IMG/VR virus record: IMGVR_UViG_3300029288_000071
Coordinates: 32,001-96,000 of that record
Length of the DNA: 64,000 bases
Strand: one strand, 5' to 3'
Source of the DNA: a virus
Lineage: Duplodnaviria > Caudoviricetes
In this document: in pieces, positions 4,690 through 48,263 of the stretch
Position numbering within the stretch: the stretch's first letter is position 1
How the letters are laid out: each line of letters opens with the position of its first letter
The notes under the pieces: generated by a model
What the model saw: the letters and a program-made list of their open reading frames with translations, nothing else
What the model was told of the DNA's origin: nothing
Database searches by the model: none
Translations under genes and position numbers: made by a program

Positions 4690-6320
4690 ACTTATTTAGT
4701 ATTTATAAGAGCTGCTTCTTTTGCTTTATGTTCTCTCCAAGCTATAAATCCACCTAATGTAGGAATATTACAGCCTTTGCGAACACATGCAGTATCTTTG
4801 TTAAGATCTGCTTCATATTCCGCGTATTGTGCTTCCCATACACTATCAGCATGAGTCATGGGCTTTTGTTCAGGTTGTGGAATAGATTGAGTAGAATGTC
4901 CAATCCAAAAGCTTATAATTATAACTGCAACAATAAATAAAGCAGTTAAAAGATTTTTTGTTAGTGTGTTCATGTTTTCTCCTGTTTTGTTGTTTCCATT
5001 GATCTTAACATCTCCATTGTGTTATTAAATTCTTGAAATGCATCAAGTAATGATCCACTTTTATTAACTTCTAAATACATTCCGAGCCATGTAAAAAATA
5101 CATGACTATCAGTTTGGTCAATTTTTTGAAGTAATGAATAATCAGTTTCTTCCATAATTTTTATATTTGATAGTTGAAATTTACTTATCCCAACTGCTGT
5201 CAAAATGACCAAACAACAAAACCATACCACATATTAAAAAAGCAATAGAGAAACTTAACAGTCCAGCTGCTGATGCTTCTCTATGCCAAGTATCTGCAAC
5301 ATAGGCATAAATAATAGCAAATATTGTAGAAAGTGAAATTAAGATCCATCCACCAACTAAAGCTCTGTTTTTCATTTACTTTATCTCCATTAAGAATATT
5401 ATTTCTTCATTTTTCTTTCCCATACTGATTTTTCTAATAAACTAATCTCTTTTTGTAAGTTAACAATTTCATAAGAATAATTTTTTATAGACTGATTAGC
5501 TTTTGCAATTTCTTTATATAAGCTATCTACTTTAGCTTTTTTAATTGCAATTTGTTTATCATCATTATCCCAAATAGTCTGAGTTTGAGAGTTTTTTATT
5601 TTAACTTTATCTTGAGAACCTGTTACTGTTTTTGTTTTATCTTGAGCTATAGCTACAATAATTCCAATAATGATAAAACATAAAAAAGGAACTAGAATTT
5701 TTATTAATGTATTTTTCATTTTTTATACTCCACAACGTTAAATTAAATTTAAAACTTTTGTTAATTTTCTTTTACAAAAGTCATTTTCTGAAGCTTTACT
5801 AATAAGCTGTTTGATTTGTTTCTTTCTTAAATCTTTTTTAAACTGGTTGATCGATTTAGACATAGGAATGTCAAATTCAGAATAGTAGGATAATTTGGGA
5901 ATATCATTATCTGGAGAATTTCCCCATCTAAAACAATAAGAATCACACCTGCCAGGAACTACATATCTGTAAAAATAAATAGATCTTGTAGTTATTTTTA
6001 ATCCAAAATATTCTCCTCTCATACCAGGTGGAGTTCTTAACCACTTATTGTCATGAAATAAATCTTGTTCTTCTGGATGTATAATATTATCAATATAGCC
6101 CAAAATATCTTTTTCAATGCCTAAAGTTTGACAAACTCTATCATAACATTCAGCTTTAGCTCGAATTTCAACTTCTTTTTTTGTTAATTTTTTACCCATA
6201 ATTTTTACTTTCAAAAATAAAAAGCGGAACAGTTAAGGGAATAAGGAGTAGTAGGAAACCCTCTTCCATTCCGCTTTCTCTAACTCATCTCCTGCTCATT
6301 TTCAGAAGATGTCAAAGAGT

Positions 6321-6674
6321 TTAGCCATTGATATCACCACTTACAGTATCAACATTACCAAGTATTTTATTTGCATTAACATCACCAGAAACTGTTTCAA
6401 CATCACCACTAACATCATTAGCTTTTACATCACCGGAAACAGTTTGAACATTGCCATCAACATCATGAACAATTACATCTCCACTTGCTGTATTTACTTT
6501 CTTAGCATTGCCAGTAATAGTAATAGTTTTGCAGGCATCTACATCTAGATTTTCAACATTACCTGAAATATTAATAATTAGATTTTCAAGTTGTGCTGAA
6601 ACTTCATTACCATCAACAATTACCTTGCCATTTTTTACAATAACATTATTTCCAGAAATATTAATACTAGTCAA
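6321..6674 (-). CDS. beta-strand repeat protein (DUF4097/bactofilin-like)
   Basis: Repeated GNVxTxSGDV units. Confidence 0.65.
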   Translation of the reverse strand: MTSINISGNNVIVKNGKVIVDGNEVSAQLENLIINISGNVENLDVDACKTITITGNAKKVNTASGDVIVHDVDGNVQTVSGDVKANDVSGDVETVSGDVNANKILGNVDTVSGDING

Positions 6675-8125
6675 TTATATTCTCCTCTTTGCATAAGATG
6701 AACATTACCATGTTTTAAAACTTGTTTTATATAATCTGGATTTGTATTATAAACTATCCAATTTACTTCTTTTGGCCGAATTGGAGGTGTAGTATAACTT
6801 GCACATCCATCAGTGAAAATAAAAATTGAATCATATTTTGATCTTACTTTATTATATAAAGTAATTACAGGTTCAAAATCAGTTCCACCACCTATATGAC
6901 AAGACATTCCTCTCTTAAATGGACGTGGTGCTTGATCTGAAGTTTTATTATCATAATATTTTCCTGATGCATCTAAAATTTCATCATTAAAAAATATAAT
7001 ATCAAATTTTGCATAGCGTTGAAGGTTATTTAAATGCGCACAAAAATCATTGTAAAGTGGTTTATCAATAGATCCAGATACATCAATTGCAACTAAAACT
7101 TTATGACCAACTTGCTGTCTTCTTTTTCCAGGAAATTGTAAACCATATCTTCGATTAGGAATTTTCCGAGTAAGTAAAGGAAGAATTGTAAATCCATGAA
7201 CTGAAGCATGTTTAGTTTGTCTCATCCATCCTGGAGTTTTCTTTTGAACACCTACATTTAGAACAACTGTATCTGATGTTGTATGACCAACTCCAGCTGG
7301 ACTCTCAACAAAAATATCTAAACCAGTTTGTGTTTTTATGTCTGATTTTGTTTTTTCTTCTTTTTCTTTTTCAGTCTCTTCATCTCCACCTTCACCCTCC
7401 TTTTTTTCTTTTTTATCAGGTGCAGGTATTGGAACAATAGAATTTCCTTTAATTACTTGTCCTGTTTTTTCATCAACTTCAACCCAATTACCATGACTAC
7501 CAATTCCCAAATCTTTGAATAATTTTCCCAAAGCATCAGCTAAAGCTTTTGCGTCTTTATAATTTTTCATCATTTTATCAATGATTGCTTTGTAGTAAAA
7601 TTCTGCATTTTGATTGGGAGGTAATTGTAGTTCTTTGTTTTCAGGAAATAAACCACCATGCCATTTTTTTGCTTCTTTATCTTGAAGTAAATCACGAATC
7701 ATTTGGTTAATTGCAAGATCACCAGCAATATTCCAAGCTTCAGCTTTTACTCTATCTTCATCTTCTTTTATAGCTAATTTCCCTCCAATAATCATTTTAG
7801 ATTTATATTCAGGAGTACGTGAAGTTGTATGATCTAAAATAATGTGCAAAGCTTCATGAAGAAGAACTCCCTTAAGTTGCTTATCAGTGAGTTCATCAAT
7901 GAAGTTTGGATTCCACATCATTTCATATTTACCTGTGAGTTCATTGGTAGTATCATAGAGTGGAGTTACACCTAATGTAGGACAAATTTTTTCATCATCA
8001 ACAATAATCATGTCAATGAAGTCAAAAATTTTATAGAGTTTTGGATATTCAGCATAGAGTTCAGCTCTATTAACTGCAACTCTAATATTTTGTTTGCTGT
8101 AATCTTTTTTCCAAATGGCTGCCAT
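6671..8125 (-). CDS. metallopeptidase + VWA domain protein (DUF2201-like)
   Basis: LLHEALH, WNIAGDLAIN, DVSGS MIDAS, GGGTDF, FTDG. Confidence 0.88.
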   Translation of the reverse strand: MAAIWKKDYSKQNIRVAVNRAELYAEYPKLYKIFDFIDMIIVDDEKICPTLGVTPLYDTTNELTGKYEMMWNPNFIDELTDKQLKGVLLHEALHIILDHTTSRTPEYKSKMIIGGKLAIKEDEDRVKAEAWNIAGDLAINQMIRDLLQDKEAKKWHGGLFPENKELQLPPNQNAEFYYKAIIDKMMKNYKDAKALADALGKLFKDLGIGSHGNWVEVDEKTGQVIKGNSIVPIPAPDKKEKKEGEGGDEETEKEKEEKTKSDIKTQTGLDIFVESPAGVGHTTSDTVVLNVGVQKKTPGWMRQTKHASVHGFTILPLLTRKIPNRRYGLQFPGKRRQQVGHKVLVAIDVSGSIDKPLYNDFCAHLNNLQRYAKFDIIFFNDEILDASGKYYDNKTSDQAPRPFKRGMSCHIGGGTDFEPVITLYNKVRSKYDSIFIFTDGCASYTTPPIRPKEVNWIVYNTNPDYIKQVLKHGNVHLMQRGEYN

Positions 8126-8153
8126 ATTACTCCTTATTATAATATGATAGTTA

Positions 8154-8182
8154 AATCTAATACTTTAAGTAGTTAAAGTAAA
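8154..8182 (-). promoter_or_regulatory. promoter TTTACT-N17-TAGATT
   Basis: Exact consensus upstream of the VWA gene. Confidence 0.75.
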
Positions 8183-9217
8183 CATTTGGCAAAAATTAAT
8201 TATCTCCATATTTTATTACAGCAACAACAACTCCTGTGATAATTAGAGCTATCCCTAAAATACCTAAAGTCCAACTATGAATTATATCAATAGTAAGACC
8301 AAAACATAATACACCAAAAACTACAATTGTAACTGGATGTATAAAAAAATTTTTAAGTTGTTCATTTGTCATGATTAATTTTCTTTCTTATAATAAATCC
8401 TCAAACATAGGACCTGGTTCTCTATCAGTATAATATTCTTCATCTTCTAATGCTGTAATTATACAGCGATCCATTGTTTGAGGATATTTTGGATGTTGGT
8501 TGTCACATTTTATTATGGTACAAGCTGTAAACTCGCCCTTTGCTTTACGGTCTAGTTTTGTCAGTAATGTTTGAAGATTACGTCTTGATAAAAATATTTG
8601 TTCCATAATTATTCTGTAGCTTTTTCAGTTATTACAGGAGCTTGAAAAGGTAAAATTACCGCTGAAGGAGCTGGAATAACTAAAGCTTTCACAACACTTT
8701 CAGTTATTTCTTGAGCTAAATGATGTCCATTACCGGTGTAAGAACCTTTAGCTTCTCGATCTTCGCAAATTCCTACAGTTGCAGCATATACTTTATTATC
8801 AAGATCTGCTTTGTTTTCAATAGGAATTAAAAAAGAAGAGACTGAAGGATTTTCTTTTAAATGTTCTTGTACTGCTGCTTCCATTGAATCAGCAAGTTTA
8901 CCAATTTCTGTAGCATCAATCTTAACTCCACTTGCCATTACAGCACTTGAAATCCGTTGACGCAAAGTTAATTTTGGATTTGAAAATCGATCTGCACCCA
9001 TTATAAGATCCTTTCATTGTATAATAATGTGAATTTATAGTTTTTGAAAATAGTCTTTTTAAAATCAATAATTTTCCAACCTTGCTTTAAGTAATAATAT
9101 CGCATAAAATCTTGAATAGCTTCTAAATTTTTGCCACTTAAGATTCGAAAAACTTTGCCCTTCTTTGTTTTTCTTGTAATTTTAATTTCTTTTTTGATGG
9201 ATTTCATTCTTTCCTCT

Positions 9218-9511
9218 CTATTCAGAACGTATTACTTTAATTTTTTGATAGGCTTGAGTCCAGCCACTTTTTTCTGATAAAGTAATCTTACATTTGAGAT
9301 CTTTCCATAATGGTGGAGCACTATTACAGCTACTACAATAAGAAAAAGATTCTAACCCGTGCGCATTTGATTCAAAAATAATAGTATAAGTACTTGATTG
9401 CAGTATTAGATCTCTTACAATTCCAACTCTTTCAATAGGAGGTTCTGGTTTTACTTCGCTACAACATTGAAATAGGAAAATAGAAAATATTATTAAAATT
9501 AAATTTTTCAT
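9218..9511 (-). CDS. putative lipoprotein
   Basis: Signal peptide ending LFQCC. Confidence 0.55.
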   Translation of the reverse strand: MKNLILIIFSIFLFQCCSEVKPEPPIERVGIVRDLILQSSTYTIIFESNAHGLESFSYCSSCNSAPPLWKDLKCKITLSEKSGWTQAYQKIKVIRSE

Positions 9512-9512
9512 T

Positions 9513-9875
9513 TTAATTTCCTTTTATTGATTCAACTTTAATTATGTAAGGCAATTCTTGCATAAACCAATTTTGATATCTTTTTCCTTTTGTGGTAATT
9601 CTATATTTTTGTCCCTCTTTTAATTGACCAAACAAATCATCTGCATTCCAAATTCCCAATAAAATACCATTATCAACTTCAAAAGATCCTTTGTCAGTTA
9701 CTACAACATAGTAAGATTCTGGATTATCTTTTGTTCCACCAACATCTACATAAGCTCTAGATACTGTAACATCTAAAATTTCTGTTGGGCCAAAACCTCC
9801 AATCCCGATAATACTTGGAATTACAAAACCAAACAAAAAAATTGCTATTAAGATACAAGCTATGTAAGTTTTCAT
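9513..9875 (-). CDS. secreted/membrane protein (DUF1523-like)
   Basis: N-terminal TM; YVVVTDKGSFEV...NADDLFGQL pattern. Confidence 0.5.
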   Translation of the reverse strand: MKTYIACILIAIFLFGFVIPSIIGIGGFGPTEILDVTVSRAYVDVGGTKDNPESYYVVVTDKGSFEVDNGILLGIWNADDLFGQLKEGQKYRITTKGKRYQNWFMQELPYIIKVESIKGN

Positions 9876-10122
9876 TTAGTGTTTTTGTTGCATAACCAGC
9901 AGAAACAGCACGAGAAGTTCTACTTGCTATTGAATAACTACTACGACCCATTTTAAATTTCCTTTCATTTAAAATACAAAGTTGTGGATAAGTCTATATT
10001 AATATTTTTTTCTATTAAAGTAAATAACAAAAACTGATAGGCAGAGCCTTCTTTTTAAATTTAATGGTTACCTATCAGTTGTCTTATCTTCTATTCTATC
10101 TAATTCTATTAACTAATATTTT

Positions 10123-17151: not shown

Positions 17152-19089
17152 TTAAGATATTTTTATTCCTGTAATCTTTTCAAAATCTTTTTCAGAAATA
17201 GCTTGAACATTAAGTTGATTTGCTTTTGTCAATTTAGAACCGGGATCTATACCGACGATTAAGTAATCAAGATTCTTATTAACTCCGGCTATTTTTCCGC
17301 CATTATCAGTAATTATTTTTTCAACTTCAGTTCTTTTCTTACTTAATGTTCCAGTAATACAAAAAGTTTTTCCTGTTAAGTTACCAGCAACTGGAGCTGC
17401 TGGTTCTTCAATTTCAATATAAGGAAGAACTTGTTTAATAAATGTTTGTTTGTCTGAGAGTCCTTCATAAATTGCATCTCCAGTTTTTGGGCCTACAATA
17501 AGTTTTAATTGAGTTAAGTCAAAATTTTTGTCAATTAAATCATCAAAATCTATAGTTTCAAGAACTTTAGAAAATGTTCTTTCTCCAGCTCCTGTGATTC
17601 CTAATGATTTAAGAAATTTGCTTTTTGAAATTTTGATGTTATGTAATTGATCCCAAAGTGATGCAGATTGAGTAGGACCAAAACCAACTTTAGCAAAATC
17701 TTCAACACTAATTTCAAATAGATCTTTAGAATCAAGTATTCCTGAATCTACAAGCATTTCAATTGATTTAACTGAAAATCCTTCTATTTCAAGACATCTA
17801 AAAAAGTGTAAAAGAGTTGCAGCTATTTGTGAAGGGCAACTAGAATTTAAGCAAATTAAATGAGCACCTTGATGTTTAATAATTGGTGATGAACAAGAAG
17901 GACAGTGGTTCGGAATATTTAATCTTCGATTTTTAGGGCGAGAAACTACTGAAACTAATTTTGGAATAATTTCATTTGCTTTTTCAATTAATACTGTATC
18001 TCCAATTGCAACATCATTACTTTTGATATAATCAATATTATTTAAAGTTACTCTTCTTACAGATGTTCCAGCTATTTGAACTTCTTTAACTTGCATTACA
18101 GGAACAATTTTTCCTGTCCTAGTTGTTGACCATTCAATATCTAAAACTTCAGTTTCTTTTTTATCCGTTTCAAATTTATAAGCAAGAGCTCCTTTTGGAG
18201 TATAATCTTTAATTCCATAACTATTGAATTCTTTTTTGTTATTTACCCAAAATACAATTCCATCTAAATCATAATGAGATTTTTGTCTAAATTCTGTAAA
18301 ATATTGAATTGCTTCATCAACTAAAATTATATCTTTTGTTGATAACATTTTATATTCTACTACTTCAAATCCGAGATCTTTAAGGAGAATCAACTCGTCT
18401 TCTTTATTACGGTTAATTGTAGATTCATCAAATAAAATATATGAAACAAAACTTAAATTTCTTTGTCCTGTAATTTTTGCTTCTTTTTGTTTGAGAGAAC
18501 CTGATGCATAATTTCTGGGATTCTTGAAAGGTTCAGTTCTTCCAGCTAATTTTTGTATTTCTTTTTCATTTTCATAAAACCACTTGTTATCTACATAAAT
18601 TTCTCCACGAATTTCAATTTTACTATTTAGTGGAACAGGTGAATTTATTTTTTTTGGAATATTTTTGATAAATTTAACATTATCAAGAACATTTTCTCCA
18701 ATTAATCCGTTTCCTCTAGTTACAGCTTTACTCAAATTATAAATTCCACCATAATATTCGTATGTAAGTGAAAGAGAGCAACCATCAATTTTGGGCATTG
18801 CAACTAAAGTTTTGCCAGTATATTCATCATAAATTTCTTCTGGAGTATGACATTTCAAAAGACTTCCCATTGGAAATTCATGTTTCAATTTTTCACCAAA
18901 AGTGCTTTCACCAAGTTCAGAAAAAACTGAATTATTAGGATCTAATTTTTTCAGTTCTTTGACAAGATTATCATATTCAAAATCTGAAATTTCTGGTGAG
19001 TCTTGATTATAATACAAATCATTATGATGTCTGATTTGTTTTACTAAATCATCAATGATGGGAGAATTTAACATTGTTTTATTGGCCAT
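17152..19089 (-). CDS. ligA: NAD-dependent DNA ligase
   Basis: YY..ISDFEYD, KIDG, RGE, NPRN, DGIV, Zn finger, BRCT. Confidence 0.95.
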   Translation of the reverse strand: MANKTMLNSPIIDDLVKQIRHHNDLYYNQDSPEISDFEYDNLVKELKKLDPNNSVFSELGESTFGEKLKHEFPMGSLLKCHTPEEIYDEYTGKTLVAMPKIDGCSLSLTYEYYGGIYNLSKAVTRGNGLIGENVLDNVKFIKNIPKKINSPVPLNSKIEIRGEIYVDNKWFYENEKEIQKLAGRTEPFKNPRNYASGSLKQKEAKITGQRNLSFVSYILFDESTINRNKEDELILLKDLGFEVVEYKMLSTKDIILVDEAIQYFTEFRQKSHYDLDGIVFWVNNKKEFNSYGIKDYTPKGALAYKFETDKKETEVLDIEWSTTRTGKIVPVMQVKEVQIAGTSVRRVTLNNIDYIKSNDVAIGDTVLIEKANEIIPKLVSVVSRPKNRRLNIPNHCPSCSSPIIKHQGAHLICLNSSCPSQIAATLLHFFRCLEIEGFSVKSIEMLVDSGILDSKDLFEISVEDFAKVGFGPTQSASLWDQLHNIKISKSKFLKSLGITGAGERTFSKVLETIDFDDLIDKNFDLTQLKLIVGPKTGDAIYEGLSDKQTFIKQVLPYIEIEEPAAPVAGNLTGKTFCITGTLSKKRTEVEKIITDNGGKIAGVNKNLDYLIVGIDPGSKLTKANQLNVQAISEKDFEKITGIKIS

Positions 19090-20029: not shown

Positions 20030-21322
20030 TCAATTAAGAGCTTTTAGATTGATAAGTGGTTTAATTCTATTTATTATTTCTGCAGTTGGTTCAATAGCTG
20101 CTTCGATTACTGAAGCTGACTTATAAGCATCTGGTGCTTCATCAAGTGTAGCATTAACTACTGAAGTAGAATAAATTTCTTTCATTTGTTCTTTAAAAGT
20201 TTCTAAAGATAAAGTTCTTTTTGCTACACCTCTAGCAAGAACTCTTCCTGCACCATGAGGGGCAGATTCATTCCATTCTTTATTTCCTTTTCCTTTACAA
20301 ATAAGAATGCCATCTCTCATATTAAATGGAATGATCATAACTTCATCTTTATGAGCACTAATTGCTCCTTTTCTAATAATCATATCTTTGAAGTCAATAT
20401 AATTATGTATTGATTCAATTTCTTCATCTATGTTCGCATTTGATATTACTTTGTTAAGTATCAATTTTTGCATTTGTTTTCTATTCCATTTAGCATACTC
20501 TTGTGCAAAAATCATATCTTCTAAATATCCTTGAGCATCTGATTTTATAAGATATTCTAATTCATTTGAAACTTTATCTGCTCTACCATAAATTTTTAAT
20601 CTAGCTAATTTGATATCTTGACTAATTCTTTGTCTAAGTTCAGGAGTAGTTGCATTAGCTTTTATTAAATCAGTAGCTTTTTTCATTTCTAAATCAAGTA
20701 AAGTTTTATCTTTATTTTGTGCAACTTTAGTCCAATAATTTGCAATTTTTAAACCAAAATTTCTAGAACCAGAATGAATAGTTAACCAAATTTTATCTTC
20801 TAAATCTCTTCCTACTTCAATAAAATGATTTCCACCACCTAAAGTACCAATTGAATTACAAGCATATTTAACATTTACATTAATTTGTTTACATTTATCT
20901 TCAAACCATTTCATATTAAAGAGTTCTGTTCCGCTAAATTTATATACTGCTTTATTTGCTTCTTCCCAAGGAAATTCTTTTTCAAAGTTAAGAATAGCTC
21001 TATTATGAATTTCTTGCCCAAAAGGAATATATTTTCTTATTTCAGAATTAATAAGAGCTTTGTTAATATCTTCTACTTTAATTCTAGTAGCTAACATACC
21101 ACAACCAATATCTACTCCAATTGTGTTTGGAATAATTTTATCAGTTAATGGCATTGTAAAACCCACAACACTTCCCTTTCCTGCATGACAATCAGGCATG
21201 ATAACAACTTGATTTGTAAATGCAGGATGATTGATAAATTTTGTAATTTGAGCTATACACTCTTCTTCAACACTATCAATCATAATTTTTGCTGAAGTAT
21301 ATTTTCCGTTTAATGTAAACAT
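20030..21322 (-). CDS. rtcB: RtcB RNA 3'-phosphate/5'-OH ligase
   Basis: MPDCHAG, GVDIGCG, GTLGGGNHFIE, HSGSR, HNY, HGAGR, DEAP.AYK. Confidence 0.95.
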   Translation of the reverse strand: MFTLNGKYTSAKIMIDSVEEECIAQITKFINHPAFTNQVVIMPDCHAGKGSVVGFTMPLTDKIIPNTIGVDIGCGMLATRIKVEDINKALINSEIRKYIPFGQEIHNRAILNFEKEFPWEEANKAVYKFSGTELFNMKWFEDKCKQINVNVKYACNSIGTLGGGNHFIEVGRDLEDKIWLTIHSGSRNFGLKIANYWTKVAQNKDKTLLDLEMKKATDLIKANATTPELRQRISQDIKLARLKIYGRADKVSNELEYLIKSDAQGYLEDMIFAQEYAKWNRKQMQKLILNKVISNANIDEEIESIHNYIDFKDMIIRKGAISAHKDEVMIIPFNMRDGILICKGKGNKEWNESAPHGAGRVLARGVAKRTLSLETFKEQMKEIYSTSVVNATLDEAPDAYKSASVIEAAIEPTAEIINRIKPLINLKALN

Positions 21323-21323
21323 G

Positions 21324-22115
21324 CTATGACCATGATATATTTTTGATTGTTATGTAGTTTTTAAGCTTATCAGGAACAAGTTCATCACTATAAGAGTTTG
21401 TAGTATAAATATGATCAATACCTTCTAAAGGTAAGCCTTTAGAAAATATTCCATGACTGACATAAAGGATAATTTTTTGTGCTCCAGCTTTTTTCAATTC
21501 TTTCGCTAATCCAACAAATGTTCCACCACCATCACATAAATCATCTGCTATTAATACATCTTCTCCATTGACTAATTCAGGCTTTTCAATTTTAAATCCA
21601 GATAATTTTCCAGTTGCCATCTCTCTTACTTTAGAACATTTTACAATAACAGACATTATTCGATTGAGCCATTGAAAAGCTCCTTTATCTGGAGATACAA
21701 GTTTTATTCCTGGATATAAAGCTAGAACTTCATTAATTTGATTTTTGGGCAAAATATTTTTTGCTCTTAAAAGTTTTTCACTAACTTCTGAATGAACATT
21801 AAATAAAGTTATTTTGTTGAAGTTGGCTGAATTGAGAATATCAGTAATTACTTTTAAAGTAAAAGGTTGATTCTCGTCTATTGGACGATCCATCCGAGCA
21901 CCCATAAGATAAGCAATTTCAAGATTCACATAAGAAGCTTTTCTGCGGAGGATTTCATTTAGCTGCATTATGTTAAGTAATTCATCTGAGTTTCTAATAC
22001 TACATCTAATAGTATAATCTGGTGCAGCTACAAGACCTTCAGGAATATTTACATGTGGTTGCCCATCAGGAAACTTGAAAGTTTCAATTTTATGTCCATT
22101 TATAGTTGTTTTCAT
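21324..22115 (-). CDS. ribose-phosphate pyrophosphokinase-like protein (Adps-like)
   Basis: FPDGQ, ARMDR, SPDKGA, DDLCDGGGTF, VSHGIFS. Confidence 0.88.
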   Translation of the reverse strand: MKTTINGHKIETFKFPDGQPHVNIPEGLVAAPDYTIRCSIRNSDELLNIMQLNEILRRKASYVNLEIAYLMGARMDRPIDENQPFTLKVITDILNSANFNKITLFNVHSEVSEKLLRAKNILPKNQINEVLALYPGIKLVSPDKGAFQWLNRIMSVIVKCSKVREMATGKLSGFKIEKPELVNGEDVLIADDLCDGGGTFVGLAKELKKAGAQKIILYVSHGIFSKGLPLEGIDHIYTTNSYSDELVPDKLKNYITIKNISWS

Positions 22116-23209: not shown

Positions 23210-23863
23210 TCATCCTTTCATATTTGCATATTTTAAGAGAAATTTTAATTGTTCTTTAATTTCTTTTGTTTTTGTTAAACTCCAAGAGAGATTATGTTGG
23301 AAATCTTTGAATACTAATCCTTCATTTTCTCCTGTTGATCCATCATATTTAATTCCTTTTAAAAAATCTTTCCAAGATTCAAGTTCGAAAGATTTTGCAA
23401 TACCAATTACCACACTTCCTAAGTTTAAATAAATTTGTTCAGGAGCTTCTAAAATATGCTTACCTTGATTAAGAGCATAGTTTTTGAAAACTACAGTTAA
23501 AATATCATATCTATTTTTGTAAGATAGCTTTGTTAAATCTTTTCCTTGGAAAACAGGAATATCCCAAAGGTAAAGTCTATTAGAAATTTCTCCTTGTTTT
23601 CTTCCAATCAATTCTCCATCAAGTAAAGTATCATTTTGAAAAATTTCTTTAAGAATATTCCAATCACTTTCAATGGATGGAGTTAAAGTTGTATGATTTC
23701 TATCCCACATTGTTACTCTAGAGTCTGTAATCTCAGGAATTGTTCTGGATCCATTTTTCTTAAGTTGAAATTTATAATTCTTAAGAATATCTAATTTTCT
23801 CAGATTCTCAATAATAGAATCTGGATTGTAGATAATTTTGGGTTTTGAAGGCCATAGAAACAT
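23210..23863 (-). CDS. ATP-dependent ligase/capping-type nucleotidyltransferase, catalytic domain only
   Basis: KKNGSR (motif I-like), LLDGEL, LWDI, EGLVFK. Confidence 0.7.
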   Translation of the reverse strand: MFLWPSKPKIIYNPDSIIENLRKLDILKNYKFQLKKNGSRTIPEITDSRVTMWDRNHTTLTPSIESDWNILKEIFQNDTLLDGELIGRKQGEISNRLYLWDIPVFQGKDLTKLSYKNRYDILTVVFKNYALNQGKHILEAPEQIYLNLGSVVIGIAKSFELESWKDFLKGIKYDGSTGENEGLVFKDFQHNLSWSLTKTKEIKEQLKFLLKYANMKG

Positions 23864-31901: not shown

Positions 31902-32265
31902 ATGTGTATCATAACCTATTTTTTGCATTAATATTGCAATTTCAGTTTTATAATTTTTTGAACGAACAATTAAAGAATAATATTTAGCAATATATTGACT
32001 TCCAACAACAGTTGGATGTACAGGAGTCCATTGTCTTGTTTCAGGTCTAAAAGCTAAATCACAATCATAAATTATTTCAAAATCTTTTAACTTTCGATAA
32101 TTTTCAGGAATATCAATATAATCATTATATTTGAGAATCATTTTCATTAAAATATTCCGGTGTCCTACCTTTAGACGAAGAAAAAACCAGCTATAAATAC
32201 TTATTATATACTTATACTTTAATGGTAAATTCTGTAAGATTCGGACTTACATTACCGGTTTTTAG

Positions 32266-42752: not shown

Positions 42753-44675
42753 TTATACTAAAATATTTAAGATACTATCTTTTTCCAAAGTTTCTGGAGA
42801 TAAGTCAATATCACATTTTTTATCTGCTTTATCAACTAAAACTGCTCCAGCTTTTTCTAAGATTTCTCTTAAAGTAATACTGTTACTATAGAAATTAATC
42901 ATATACTTTCTTGCTTTTTCAGTATAATCATTATTTCTAGAAGTAATAGTATTACCAATACTTGACTTCATCAAATAAAACTTATTCTCTGTAGGTTCTG
43001 TTACTAACAAACCTAAGATTTTTTGTTTTTCTTCGATTTTAAGTTTAACTGTAGAAATGATGTTGTTTGGATTTACCATATAATTCTTTGGTAAATTCAC
43101 TTGTTTTTCACTAGCTACAATTAACTTAAACGGAACTGGAATTTGTTCACTAAAGTTGAAGTAGTTAAGCATTAACATGAAGATATTGCTTTTTTGCTTC
43201 TTAATATAAAACAATTCTGAAGCTCCATTAGCAGCATCTGTCATATCACCAGAAAATAAGATACTAGCACCTTCATTACTACCACCACGGCCGTATCTAT
43301 ATTCTCCATCCCATCCAATTTTAACCAATCCAACTAAAGACAAATCTAAGTCTATTCGGTTGCGGTTAACATTTTCCCAGTAAACACCAATTACTAAATC
43401 TTTTGGAACTGTAATAAATGTTCCTTCTGGAAAATTATCAATAAACATCTTTTCAGTTGCTGGTAAAGCATACTCAGTGTTTTTAGGCAAGAATATCTTT
43501 TTACCATCTACTTTTACTTTGATGCTATCAGCAATAGAATCTAAAACAATGTTATAGATTTTTTCAGCTAACTTTTGGTTTTTGAAGCCGAAATCAGTTG
43601 CATAACTTTTTCCATTTCGAATCTTGTATAAAATAGAATCCAATTCATCTTTTGTTCTGAATTTCAAAGCATAAGCTAATCGGATTTTTCTGAAAATGTT
43701 TACTCGACTTAATTCAACTTTTAACTTTTCTTCGTCTATTTTGTTTTTCTTGACATAAGAAGTTACATTGTTCAAGAAATCTTCAGGCATTGGCTTATGA
43801 TATTTAACAGCCAATTTTCTGATTTTGTTAATAGCAGCTTTCAACCCTTTATTAGTTCTGAAAGCTAAAAACAAAGGTTTAAATCTCAAGAAAATTTCAG
43901 CTAATTTTTCTAAGCCGTATTTCTTTGAGTATTTATTAAACAAATTCAAAGCAGCAAGATTGTCTTTGCTTTTGATTTCTGCAATAAGAGCTTTGTTTTT
44001 AATTAACAAAGTTCGATTTGTTGATTTATAAATTATGTATCTCAAGAATTCAATTGGATGTTCAGGAACAACATCAAAATAATCAAAGAAAGCAATTCTT
44101 ACTTCTTTGTTTTTGATATCATTGATTTCTTTTTCATCTATATTAATAATAGAAGTGCTTATGTCTAAGATATCTCTTTTAGAATCTTCACTTAAAGCAA
44201 TTCCACTTTTCAAGATATTCAAAACTTTTTCTTTGATCTCTTCTTTAGTATAGCCTTTGATTACAGTTAACTTGATTTTGTCAAGTTTGATCTTAGGAAT
44301 CTTCAAAGCTTCATCAGGAATATAAACTGTTTTTTCGTCATATATTCCTAATTGTTCAAATCCATAAGTAGTAATGTAATGAACAATTTGTTCAATTACT
44401 AATTGCTCGATAGAAGAATCTTTAATTTTTTTCCAAGACTTATGGAAAGAACTATTTATCTCTTCTGGTGATATACCAACTTCTGATTTTATTGAATCAG
44501 CAATTTTTATCAATTCAGCTTCAGAATAATTGTAAATTACTTCTGGTGAAAAGATAAAACCAAGTTCAACAGTTTTGTTTAATAAAGCTTTTGGATATTT
44601 CTTTTTGCCGTTTTCTTGAATTAAAACAGCTCTAAACAAACGAATTAATGATAACATATTAGTGGATCCTTTCAA
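42753..44675 (-). CDS. large helical protein with C-terminal TerD-like domain
   Basis: DLDLS and FSGDMTDA..GASE motifs resemble TerD; N-terminal two thirds look helical. Confidence 0.65.
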   Translation of the reverse strand: MKGSTNMLSLIRLFRAVLIQENGKKKYPKALLNKTVELGFIFSPEVIYNYSEAELIKIADSIKSEVGISPEEINSSFHKSWKKIKDSSIEQLVIEQIVHYITTYGFEQLGIYDEKTVYIPDEALKIPKIKLDKIKLTVIKGYTKEEIKEKVLNILKSGIALSEDSKRDILDISTSIINIDEKEINDIKNKEVRIAFFDYFDVVPEHPIEFLRYIIYKSTNRTLLIKNKALIAEIKSKDNLAALNLFNKYSKKYGLEKLAEIFLRFKPLFLAFRTNKGLKAAINKIRKLAVKYHKPMPEDFLNNVTSYVKKNKIDEEKLKVELSRVNIFRKIRLAYALKFRTKDELDSILYKIRNGKSYATDFGFKNQKLAEKIYNIVLDSIADSIKVKVDGKKIFLPKNTEYALPATEKMFIDNFPEGTFITVPKDLVIGVYWENVNRNRIDLDLSLVGLVKIGWDGEYRYGRGGSNEGASILFSGDMTDAANGASELFYIKKQKSNIFMLMLNYFNFSEQIPVPFKLIVASEKQVNLPKNYMVNPNNIISTVKLKIEEKQKILGLLVTEPTENKFYLMKSSIGNTITSRNNDYTEKARKYMINFYSNSITLREILEKAGAVLVDKADKKCDIDLSPETLEKDSILNILV

Positions 44676-44686
44676 TTAAAATTTAT

Positions 44687-44889
44687 AAGCGAGAAGTAAT
44701 TACCGTCTGCCCAGGGGCAGACTAGGAGTTGAACCTAGTTATTAGGAACTTCTTTTGCCTATAAAAAGTTTTAGACGGAGAGTAATTGCCTTCAAATGAT
44801 TATTAGGAACTCTCTATGTCTAATTAAAATTCGAAGACGAGAAGTATTTTCTTTCATGTAAGGAATTTTATTAGGAACTTCTTATGTCT
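44687..44889 (-). repeat. three tandem copies of structured RNA motif B (Y-RNA-like)
   Basis: AGAC-AUA-AGAAGU-UCCUA...U-ACUUCU-C-GUCU at 44687-44760, 44773-44821, 44835-44889. Confidence 0.75.
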
Positions 44890-44997
44890 TCTTTAAAAAA
44901 ACGGTTCGTATTGTTGAGATTTTCACTCAATCACTTTTTCAAGTGTTTAAGCACAGCTGGGATTTCTCCAACAGCTAACATTTCGTGCTAATACAGG

Positions 44998-45071
44998 TGG
45001 ACCCAAAGGGAGTCGAACCCTCAACTATGCGGTGCAAGCGCATCGTTTTCCCAATTGGCTACTATGGGCCC
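44998..45071 (-). tRNA. tRNA-Ala(TGC)
   Basis: G3.U70. Confidence 0.85.
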
Positions 45072-45637
45072 CATTTCAATTTCAAGTATTCTTGAACTTT
45101 ATCAAAAACTTCTTTTTTGTATTTTGAATGAATATAACCATGATGATTTCTGCATAATGGAACTAGATTTTCAGGTCTATTGTCATTGTGAATTAAATTT
45201 ATGTGATGTGCACAAACCATTTTTTCTTCAGGACATATAATACATTTTTTGCCATGATGCTTAAAACAAATTGTTCTATAACTAAATGTTGATTTAGTTC
45301 CATTTTTCTTAAAATTTTCGGCTCTTACAAGGGCTCCAACTTTATTGGAGCATTTTCTAGAACAATAATACTTTTCTTTTTTTGGAAATTCTTTTTCATA
45401 TTCTTCAACATCAAATTTACATTTACAAATTTCACAAACAACTTTAAATATTTTTTTCTTTCCTTTTATTCTTTCAGTTCTAGCAATATTTCCTTTTGCT
45501 AATTTTTCTCTAGTTTGTTGGGAAATAAAAATTCTGTTCTTATTTGAAGAACATCTATTTTGATGATAAGAAATTCCAGTTTTTGTTGTAAAAATTTTTC
45601 TATTACAAAATTTACATATTTGATTTTCTTTTTCCAT
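45062..45637 (-). CDS. HNH homing endonuclease
   Basis: CIIC..HHIN..NRPENLVPLCRNHH; Zn-finger repeats; start uncertain. Confidence 0.8.
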   Translation of the reverse strand: MEKENQICKFCNRKIFTTKTGISYHQNRCSSNKNRIFISQQTREKLAKGNIARTERIKGKKKIFKVVCEICKCKFDVEEYEKEFPKKEKYYCSRKCSNKVGALVRAENFKKNGTKSTFSYRTICFKHHGKKCIICPEEKMVCAHHINLIHNDNRPENLVPLCRNHHGYIHSKYKKEVFDKVQEYLKLKWGP

Positions 45638-45750
45638 GATGATAAATATCATGGAGACCGAGTTAAAATTGTACTTTCGCCCCCACGGCACATGTGAGCC
45701 CATATTATATTTGTAATCTAATACTTAATTGTGTTAAAGTAAACAAAATG

Positions 45751-45835
45751 CTCAACCGGTAGGATTCGAACCTACGATGTCTTTTGGACGACGGCTTAAC
45801 AGGCCGCTGTGGTACCGGGCTCCACGCACGGTTGA
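45751..45835 (-). tRNA. tRNA-Asn(GTT) with long variable arm
   Basis: CGGC-CTGTTAA-GCCG plus GTC-CAAAA-GAC arm. Confidence 0.78.
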
Positions 45836-46187
45836 ATGATAAATGCGGCTAACTGCAAAAAGTATTTACTGTTTCCATCCGGTAACCGGCCCTAGTGTCT
45901 GCTTTTTGGTTAATTCCAATGCCGCTATGTCAATGAACTTGAGAAGTAAATGAGACTCGAACTCAAAATAACTACCTAGTACTTCTAAAAATTAAAACTG
46001 ATTATAAAAATGTGTAAAGATTAAAAAATTTTTAGCGTGATGCTAAGTTCGGTTGATAACTATGCTTTCGTTCCGATTTGGCTGAAGTAAGCACGTTATC
46101 TGATGTAGTCCCGAGTATATTATCAGGTCTAATCGTATTGGGGCAATATGTAAAGCGTAGAGTTTTCATTTTTATTTTTTAAAATTT

Positions 46188-46251
46188 AGACGAGAAGTAT
46201 TTTCTGGTAGCCGCTGATGGCGGCTTGATTTAATAGGAACTTCTTATGTCT
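46188..46251 (-). ncRNA. structured RNA motif B, fourth copy
   Basis: Terminal stems identical to 44835-44889; directly downstream of a promoter motif. Confidence 0.7.
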
Positions 46252-46341
46252 AAGTAAAAATAATAAATAATTTAACTAGTTATAATATAATACATTCAAA
46301 GTTAAAAGTAAACGACTTTTTCAACTTTTTTTACTTTTTGT

Positions 46342-47660: not shown

Positions 47661-47834
47661 GATAGATCTCCGTAAATAGCAGTCCCTGAGGATGGTATAT
47701 TTAGAATATACTTATGATAGCACTTTATAGGCGCCGTCACATCTTGCTCAGGATTTACCTGCTGAGTTGCTAAATAGCTAACTCATGTTTATTATATGTC
47801 AAAGAACCTTTAAGAGCAACATTCTAGCGAAATG

Positions 47835-48263
47835 TGGACCTGTGCGGATTCGAACCGCAGTGTTACTATAATTAAATCTGAATTTCTACAAGTTTATCTA
47901 ATTTTCCAGTGCGAAATTTGAGCTCGCAAAAATGTCTGGTACAAATTTGATATAGCAGAAAAATTAGAAAACTTACTATATCTCATCAAGTAATTTTTTA
48001 ATGAAGATCACTTGATAAGAACTTCAGACCTGAAACCAATTGCCGAGGACACCAGTTAGTCTACAAATTTTCGAAGTGGCTAACAACTACGTTACTAAAG
48101 CTTTTTAGGCTAAAGCAAATTCATTTTGAGAAACAAAAGCTAAAGCATCCTCAAAAGTGAAGGCAGATTTTTGTTCTGCATTTATGTTTTTAGATAAGTT
48201 TAAAGAGCTTCAAGCTCTACTTGCTATTCAGTTCGCTTATAATAGTCGATACCTTTCAGGCCC
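47835..48263 (-). ncRNA. ssrA: tmRNA
   Basis: 5' GGGCCUGAAAGGUAUCGAC, 3' T-arm + CAGGUCCA, G3.U70; tag AEQKSAFTFEDALAFVSQNEFALA* at 48105-48179. Confidence 0.9.

Follow-up and report, generated by a model that had tools for sequence, protein, structure and literature searches.

To our knowledge, Ro60 together with its Y RNAs is the only well-studied case in which modular small RNAs that mimic tRNA serve a protein as adaptors for RNA quality control; how it works in bacteria is still under study. Described systems (Rfam RF02553) include the Salmonella rsr-yrlBA-rtcBA operon, the Deinococcus Rsr-Yrn1-PNPase system, and phage Ro60 proteins such as that of Thermus phage phiLo (PMC4201824, PMC7790460, PMC12135203). 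The Ro60-contact motif of the Y RNA 5' strand is GNCGAAN0-1G / GGUCCGA (PMC4201824), and a survey of jumbo phages mentions only canonical ROT/TROVE proteins with tRNA-like partners (PMC7824862). Here we describe a family of small structured RNAs, termed handle RNAs or Y-like RNAs, and the large protein gene beside them in a 64,000-nucleotide stretch (the window) comprising positions 32,001 to 96,000 of the phage record IMGVR_UViG_3300029288_000071. The record is that of an uncultured, AT-rich phage of 207 kb with a CheckV completeness of 91%. The handle RNAs and the protein look like an undescribed counterpart of the Ro60/Y-RNA particle. We found no description of this RNA-protein pair in the literature covered, which did not extend to Burroughs and Aravind 2016 or Sim et al. 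2020.

The window contains four copies of the RNA, all on the minus strand, in a region where every gene is on that strand and where the RNAs are embedded in a cluster of 27 tRNA genes. A search with the 20-mer AGACATAAGAAGTTCCTAAT from the 5' half of the motif, allowing up to three mismatches, returned four matches where 0.01 was expected. The handle consists of a 4-bp lower stem, an internal loop of AUA or AAA on the 5' side opposite C on the 3' side, and a 6-bp upper stem followed by UCCUA, and it encloses a variable insert. The lower stem is AGAC/GUCU, with AGGC/GCUU in copy 1, and the upper stem is AGAAGU/ACUUCU, with GAGAGU/ACUCUC in copy 2; each copy folds in this way. The first-pass annotation of the window had reported these four copies with both sets of compensatory changes, and the search and folds bear it out. 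It had also correctly placed three copies directly upstream of a 640-aa gene (open reading frame (ORF) 42753-44675), and noted a T-arm-like hairpin in one copy, which is copy 1. The 3' end of copy 1 lies 29 nt ahead of the ATG. Copy 4 is located 1.3 kb upstream of copy 3, with tRNA-Asn, an HNH endonuclease gene and tRNA-Ala in between, and its fold has a z of -5.2.

We used two covariance models, R1, built from the four window copies, and R2, a more general model from 150 relatives. No further strong copy was found with R1 across the 207-kb phage genome. With filters off, R2 recovered the same four copies in the window at 50.7–65.5 bits, in addition to one weak candidate at 46298-46340 whose stems are AAGU/ACUU and AAAAGU/ACUUUU with an AAA bulge; this candidate lacks UCCUA, and an A replaces the 3' C.

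The handle is a genuine covarying RNA family. We fetched 80 IMG/VR loci around homologues of the protein for the RNA search, and in most of them the bare handle 9-mer is already found just upstream of the gene. In 1.0 Mb of sequence from 75 sources, searched on both strands, R1 identified 193 matches at E≤0.01, all on the strand of the gene and nearly all within 500 nt upstream of it or just downstream. When the 150 best matches are aligned, 99.8% of cells are in standard pairs and all ten pairs have changes on both sides (353 cells), although an alignment fitted to the model is biased toward the structure. None of 500 shuffled controls reached any of the covariation measures, and sliding the 3' partners reduced pairing to 33–55%. 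An independent descriptor search, written in Python, gave the same picture as the covariance model. The consensus reads N-G-R-C, A-W-A, N4-G-U, U-C-C-U-A, an insert of 15–106 nt, U, A-C-N4, C, G-Y-C-N, with essentially no variation in UCCU, the closing U or the single 3' C.

The genomic linkage between the RNA and the protein gene is near-obligate. A strict descriptor applied to 52 non-redundant 14-kb phage loci with full flanks found 107 copies within 800 nt upstream of the gene on the gene strand, 10 within 1 kb downstream, three elsewhere on the gene strand and two on the opposite strand. There are one to six copies per locus. Scanning one genome per prokaryotic species yielded 20 loci with the protein, 17 of which have the RNA upstream. 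In all, about a hundred loci of phages and bacteria carry the pair, among them those of the cultured cyanophages S-CRM01 and S-CBWM1 and the gut phage Phass-1. The first-pass annotation had proposed a covariance model and an examination of its linkage to homologues; far from being absent beside homologous genes, the motif accompanies them almost without exception. In S-CRM01 (L001), the hypothetical gene g173c (5800-5946, minus strand) lies antisense over two to three Y-like copies (5754-5815, 5822-5886 and 5893-5977) and is probably a spurious ORF call.

Four classes of insert are found within the handle. The commonest is short and AU-rich with at most a weak hairpin. The second is a strong GC hairpin, frequently capped by a UUCG, GAAA or GAGA tetraloop (these words are present in 44 sources), and copy 4 of the window is of this kind. 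The third class consists of a T-arm and one hairpin and is represented by copy 1, its 83%-identical relative in locus L004, and S-CRM01. The copy 1 insert comprises the T-arm-like hairpin CUAGGUUCAACUCCUAG, then the GC hairpin UCUGCCCCUGGGCAGA, which is acceptor-like, and then ACGGUAAUU; it has no D-arm. In the fourth class the insert is a complete inside-out tRNA body (T-arm, closed acceptor stem and D-arm) on a short anticodon-stem analogue, as in the relatives L010, L022, L054, L056, L060, L107 and L001. Such copies display tRNA mimicry. Some of the short AU-rich inserts also recur on different handles in unrelated phages, for example a 7-nt CUGUUAA loop (6 sources), which resembles the tRNA-Asn anticodon loop, and UUGG/AAUGG motifs (23 sources), and we count this recurrence as a sign of selection on the inserts. 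A limited test confined to the window gave no support to the first-pass annotation's suggestion that the variable loop acts as a guide: sequences complementary to the inserts of copies 2 and 3 match there no more often than by chance.

The resemblance to Y RNAs lies in the overall plan. Several paralogous small RNAs adjoin one large protein gene, and their ends pair into a conserved bulged handle common to the paralogues (ten covarying pairs with an AWA/C loop) while the rest is variable. In addition, the tRNA-body class has the design of YrlA: these copies fold into the permuted T-arm/acceptor/D-arm arrangement and in a local search match the full Rfam YrlA model with 34.9–49.5 bits (E 3e-10 to 7e-4). 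These scores are below the YrlA gathering score of 69 bits. In the cmscan alignments the tRNA-like core carries the match, whereas the YrlA stems align poorly to the handle, with non-canonical pairs. There are also differences from Y RNAs. The handle reads GRC-AWA-NNNNGU-UCCUA rather than GNCGAAN0-1G, and the canonical Ro60-contact motif is absent. Most handle RNAs are far shorter (~50–75 nt) and have no tRNA-like part, they are found in tight tandem arrays in the leader of the gene, and none reaches the Rfam gathering score for YrlA or Y_RNA (RF02553, RF00019). The window copies themselves match no Rfam family at its gathering score, nor YrlA or Y_RNA even at E≤10. A 27.7-bit Rfam match to Streptococcus SSRC34 spanning two of them was dismissed as noise. 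Because the YrlA match is carried by the tRNA-like core and the Ro60-contact motif is absent, we regard the RNA as a relative in design with a different handle. The Y-RNA likeness proposed in the first-pass annotation therefore stands as to the end-paired handle with its variable module and the YrlA-like bodies of relatives, but does not extend to the GNCGAAN0-1G motif.

The gene downstream of copies 1–3 encodes a member of a large, unannotated protein family. Its open frame reaches a TTG at 44675; however, the ATG at 44657 is the likely start and agrees with the database protein P0002. The protein has no Pfam match at E≤0.1, nothing usable among PHROGs or NCBIfam, and no match in a PDB sequence-profile search. 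Among the candidates scored there are at least 1995 clusters at 90% identity, none of which carries a Pfam domain, and an exhaustive search gave 1455 representatives at 50% identity (E≤0.001). Homologues include S-CRM01 g174 and S-CBWM1 gp22, both located inside tRNA arrays, and a protein of Phass-1.

The AlphaFold model (pLDDT 80.5, pTM 0.80) consists of an N-terminal alpha/beta part, helical repeats at residues ~138–385, a TerD-like beta-sandwich at ~415–575, and C-terminal helices. Foldseek against the PDB returned only TerD, for the C-terminal domain, with which it has the beta-sandwich fold in common (PDB 2KXT, 2QZ7, 3IBZ), so the first-pass annotation was right to call the protein TerD-like. 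By cluster annotation the only trace of TerD is one ESM Atlas cluster in which 22% of members carry it. Unlike TerD itself, the domain has no match to Pfam TerD (PF02342) at E≤0.1, does not keep the acidic Ca-binding run, is fused to a ~400-residue helical domain, and is encoded beside RNA genes rather than in a Ter operon. The N-terminal domain, folded alone and compared with 48,161 PDB chains and the ESM Atlas, retrieved only generic helical hairpins or solenoids and its own family. The most conserved motifs of the family, NSSFHKSWK, HYITTYG and RNGK, fall in low-confidence loops of the model, a pattern that may indicate segments which become ordered upon ligand binding.

The whole protein resembles in structure those of the MXAN_6230/SCO0854 RING family (NCBIfam NF041916, Pfam Prok-RING_4). 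An ESM Atlas member aligns with 583 of 634 residues at a TM score of 0.72 by query, and the family shows a weak sequence match to the partner in the TerD-like region (E 0.039); on these two grounds the whole helical-plus-TerD core appears to be shared. The MXAN_6230/SCO0854 proteins are 850–1000 aa long, actinobacterial or myxobacterial, and carry a RING domain, which the phage partner does not have.

The partner also differs from Ro60, as neither TROVE nor vWA is detected by Pfam or hhalign. We compared the family with eight TROVE proteins extracted from Chloroflexota genomes. The hhalign probability against TROVE (PF05731) is 0.2% with both shallow and deep family profiles, Pfam and PDB profiles gave nothing, and the structural comparison with Ro60 that had been proposed in the first-pass annotation did not rise above noise. 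Where Ro60 has a C-terminal vWA domain with a MIDAS, this protein has the TerD-like beta-sandwich. On the strength of the hhalign result we do not file the protein under Ro60/TROVE. It is improbable, in our judgement, that the protein is nevertheless an extremely diverged Ro60/TROVE homologue in which TerD has replaced vWA; such a descent would be compatible with the mechanism we favour below and concerns membership in the family. In addition, TROVE (PF05731) was found neither in the 207-kb phage nor in five other carrier genomes, which suggests that the pair fills the slot of Ro60 and does not accompany it.

In bacteria the pair occurs in a context of RNA-repair genes, as does Ro60/Y RNA, which likewise is found both beside RtcB and in phages. 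In a sample of 401 Bacteroidota genomes the protein is present in four, two of these cases are chromosomal, and in both of the latter the RNAs lie ahead of the gene. One locus consists of a WYL regulator, RtcB, the RNAs, the protein and two RlaP nucleotidyltransferases. The other consists of RtcB, an RF-1-domain (PrfH-like) protein, a TPR protein, four RNAs, the protein and an RNase T-type exonuclease. The pair thus occupies the same genomic slot as rsr-yrlBA does in the Salmonella rtcBA operon (PMC7790460). On a Bacteroidota chromosome (L126; 11472-12167 and 13504-14895), an RF-1-domain protein near RtcB, reminiscent of the RtcB-PrfH ribosome-repair pairing, belongs to one cluster with the Y-like RNAs and the TerD-domain protein. 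In a metagenome-assembled genome of Ktedonobacter, the gene is accompanied only by a 120-nt YrlA-like RNA, with a peptidase gene on one side and a sugar-transport operon on the other. The homologue in Ktedonobacter racemifer DSM 44963 (L100; 6001-8849) is split into overlapping frames (6248-7297 and 7239-8837), with a 509-aa ORF on the opposite strand (6987-8516) and a weak upstream RNA match (E 0.016); it looks disrupted or decaying.

Phage neighbourhoods are more varied. RtcB is indeed encoded in the window, as the first-pass annotation had pointed out, but it is 22 kb away, and among phages the linkage is loose (6 of 21 related records, or 7 of 22 with the source phage), although in bacterial chromosomes the pair is found beside RtcB. 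There are tRNAs within 6 kb at 26 of 72 phage loci. Obligate linkage to RtcB or to tRNA arrays in phages was rejected on these counts. No conserved protein neighbour was found in phages, the best cluster being a DNA polymerase at 14 of 95 loci; the few that do recur include the CCA-adding enzyme (6 loci) and RtcB (5 loci).

The position of copies inside tRNA arrays, in the window and at about a third of phage loci, raises the question of whether the elements are processing or punctuation hairpins, signals for cleavage or stabilisation at which a long phage transcript is divided into its tRNAs and mRNA, and have no dedicated protein partner. RNase P or RNase Z could cleave those copies that are tRNA-like. 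However, the other 46 of the 72 phage loci have no tRNA within 6 kb and all retain the pairing of RNA and protein, the motif is found nowhere else in the 207-kb genome despite its 27 tRNAs, and in Ktedonobacter and Bacteroidota it goes with the gene rather than with tRNAs. We give this explanation very little credence.

We consider it probable that the elements belong to a Y-RNA-type ribonucleoprotein with a non-TROVE helical/TerD partner that acts on tRNA or damaged RNA. The four elements would be small non-coding RNAs on the Y-RNA plan whose paired ends form the constant handle, and it is on this handle that the 634-aa product of the gene immediately downstream would dock. The insert displays tRNA pieces or simple hairpins that differ by copy, and a full inside-out tRNA body in some relatives. 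The RNAs are probably co-transcribed with the tRNA cluster and the mRNA of the gene and then excised, and by analogy with Y RNAs they may be processed into stable small RNAs. The particle would most likely function in tRNA or RNA damage control or quality control, as suggested by the co-location, the bacterial operon context and the parallel with Ro60 and Y RNA. The tRNA-like modules would attract or tie up enzymes that recognise tRNA, be they repair and maturation factors or tRNA nucleases of the host. A more specific version, which we hold tentatively and judge slightly short of an even chance, is that this is a second Y-RNA-type ribonucleoprotein, without detectable kinship to Ro60, with a universal handle and interchangeable heads (T-arm, whole inside-out tRNA, anticodon-loop-like or tetraloop hairpins) that deliver enzymes of tRNA processing or repair to damaged RNA or act as a sink for tRNA-cleaving defence nucleases of the host, in phage infection and in bacterial stress.

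Several observations weigh against the ribonucleoprotein and its proposed role. No RNA-binding domain is recognisable by sequence in the protein, its likeness to Ro60 is within noise, and the suggestion that it binds the handle directly draws on co-location and analogy. RtcB and tRNA arrays are found at a minority of phage loci, so a repair role lacks general proof, and in Ktedonobacter the neighbours of the pair are unrelated housekeeping genes. The arrangement of the copies also counts here, as it would suit a purely cis-acting leader. They are in tandem on the gene strand 5–25 nt apart (median inter-copy spacing 15 nt), and the median distance from the end of the last copy to the start codon is 24 nt (9–37 nt in 29 of 35 loci), which leaves room only for a Shine-Dalgarno sequence. 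The main rival is accordingly that the handles are solely 5' untranslated region (UTR) operators, bound by the protein itself or by some other factor to control translation or mRNA stability of the gene, with no free small RNA; pairing of the invariant UCCU with an AGGA Shine-Dalgarno sequence is conceivable in principle.

The short distance to the start codon speaks for autoregulatory binding sites, which the first-pass annotation had named as its alternative. A purely cis-acting leader is nonetheless unlikely in our view. Although most copies are in the leader, they are not confined to the 5' UTR: copy 4 of the window is remote, copies occur downstream of the gene in loci L028, L068, L030, L079 and L001, and in Phass-1 they lie 1.5 kb downstream of it, beside the transfer-messenger RNA (tmRNA) gene. 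Full tRNA bodies and recurrent insert types would be needless for an operator. Moreover, canonical Y RNAs are also co-transcribed in an operon, rsr-yrlBA-rtcBA (PMC4201824, PMC7790460). The leader and ribonucleoprotein explanations are not mutually exclusive.

If the ribonucleoprotein reading is correct, a second system of the same design would make that design a general solution and not a peculiarity of Ro60. Two families would also gain a role, a large unannotated protein family with at least 1455 clusters at 50% identity and an RNA family that has no Rfam entry. S-CRM01, S-CBWM1 and Bacteroidota are tractable models for tRNA protection or repair in phages and bacteria.

The features of the locus are collected in Table 1.

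Table 1. Coordinates of the handle RNAs, the partner gene and surrounding features in the window
Feature	Coordinates	Strand	Remarks
tmRNA	47832-48263		71.5 bits; missed by ARAGORN; 1.6 kb upstream of copy 4
tRNA-Met	46413-46340	minus	First in minus-strand order
Weak handle-like element, possible degenerate fifth copy	46340-46298	minus	Next after tRNA-Met; R2 19.3 bits, E 0.0047; weak, chance possible
Y-like RNA copy 4	46188-46251	minus	Handle as copy 3; insert with 6-bp GC hairpin (GCCGCC/GGCGGC); R1 80.3 bits, R2 55.1 bits
350-nt spacer	45836-46186	minus	Between copy 4 and tRNA-Asn
tRNA-Asn(GUU)	45835-45750	minus	Between spacer and HNH ORF
HNH homing-endonuclease-like ORF	45703-45062	minus	PHROG E 3e-9; wedged between tRNA-Asn and tRNA-Ala
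tRNA-Ala	45071-44996	minus	Between HNH ORF and copy 3
Y-like RNA copy 3	44889-44835	minus	AGAC-AUA-AGAAGU-UCCUA ... U-ACUUCU-C-GUCU; short AU-rich insert; R1 72.4 bits, R2 65.5 bits (E 8e-17)
Y-like RNA copy 2	44821-44773	minus	AGAC-AUA-GAGAGU-UCCUA ... U-ACUCUC-C-GUCU; compensatory upper stem; short AU-rich insert; R1 68.2 bits, R2 58.4 bits
Y-like RNA copy 1	44760-44687	minus	AGGC-AAA-AGAAGU-UCCUA ... U-ACUUCU-C-GCUU; R1 72.4 bits, R2 50.7 bits (E 2e-12); followed by Shine-Dalgarno, then partner gene
Partner-protein gene	44657-42753	minus	634 aa; ATG 44657, stop 42753; Shine-Dalgarno AAAGGA at 44667-44672; tRNA-Thr next after gene
RtcB RNA ligase gene	20030-21322	minus	PF01139, 215 bits; context only, outside the locus

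The spacer between copy 4 and tRNA-Asn is not unusual in overall structure (z -0.86). It contains a tRNA-like minihelix (45940-45992, minus strand) in which a 7-bp stem, AGAAGUA/UACUUCU, surrounds the T-arm-like hairpin UGAGUUCGAGUCUCA. The stem includes the words AGAAGU/ACUUCU found in the handles of copies 1, 3 and 4, and UCCUA is absent. Neither ARAGORN nor Rfam gave a call for the minihelix, which perhaps represents a decayed copy or else a minimal tRNA-like element. Promoter and terminator scans gave counts at or below shuffle expectation.

The tRNA-Asn(GUU) is 86 nt in total with an unusually long variable arm, a class II shape that is abnormal for tRNA-Asn. The 3' end of the HNH ORF overlaps the tRNA-Ala call by ~10 nt, and similar endonucleases are present in the tRNA arrays of S-CBWM1. 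Close to the RtcB gene, a 217-aa nucleotidyltransferase (23210-23863, minus strand) matches mRNA-capping-enzyme and ATP-dependent-ligase domains and may be a second RNA or DNA ligase. A PRPP-synthetase-like protein is also encoded near RtcB (21324-22115, minus strand), and an NAD-dependent DNA ligase is located at 17152-19089. In Phass-1 (L003), three Y-like RNAs (9262-9476) directly abut the tmRNA gene (9485-9923, 77.9 bits); together with the tmRNA of the window, this may reflect a recurrent association of Y-like RNAs with the ribosome-rescue RNA.

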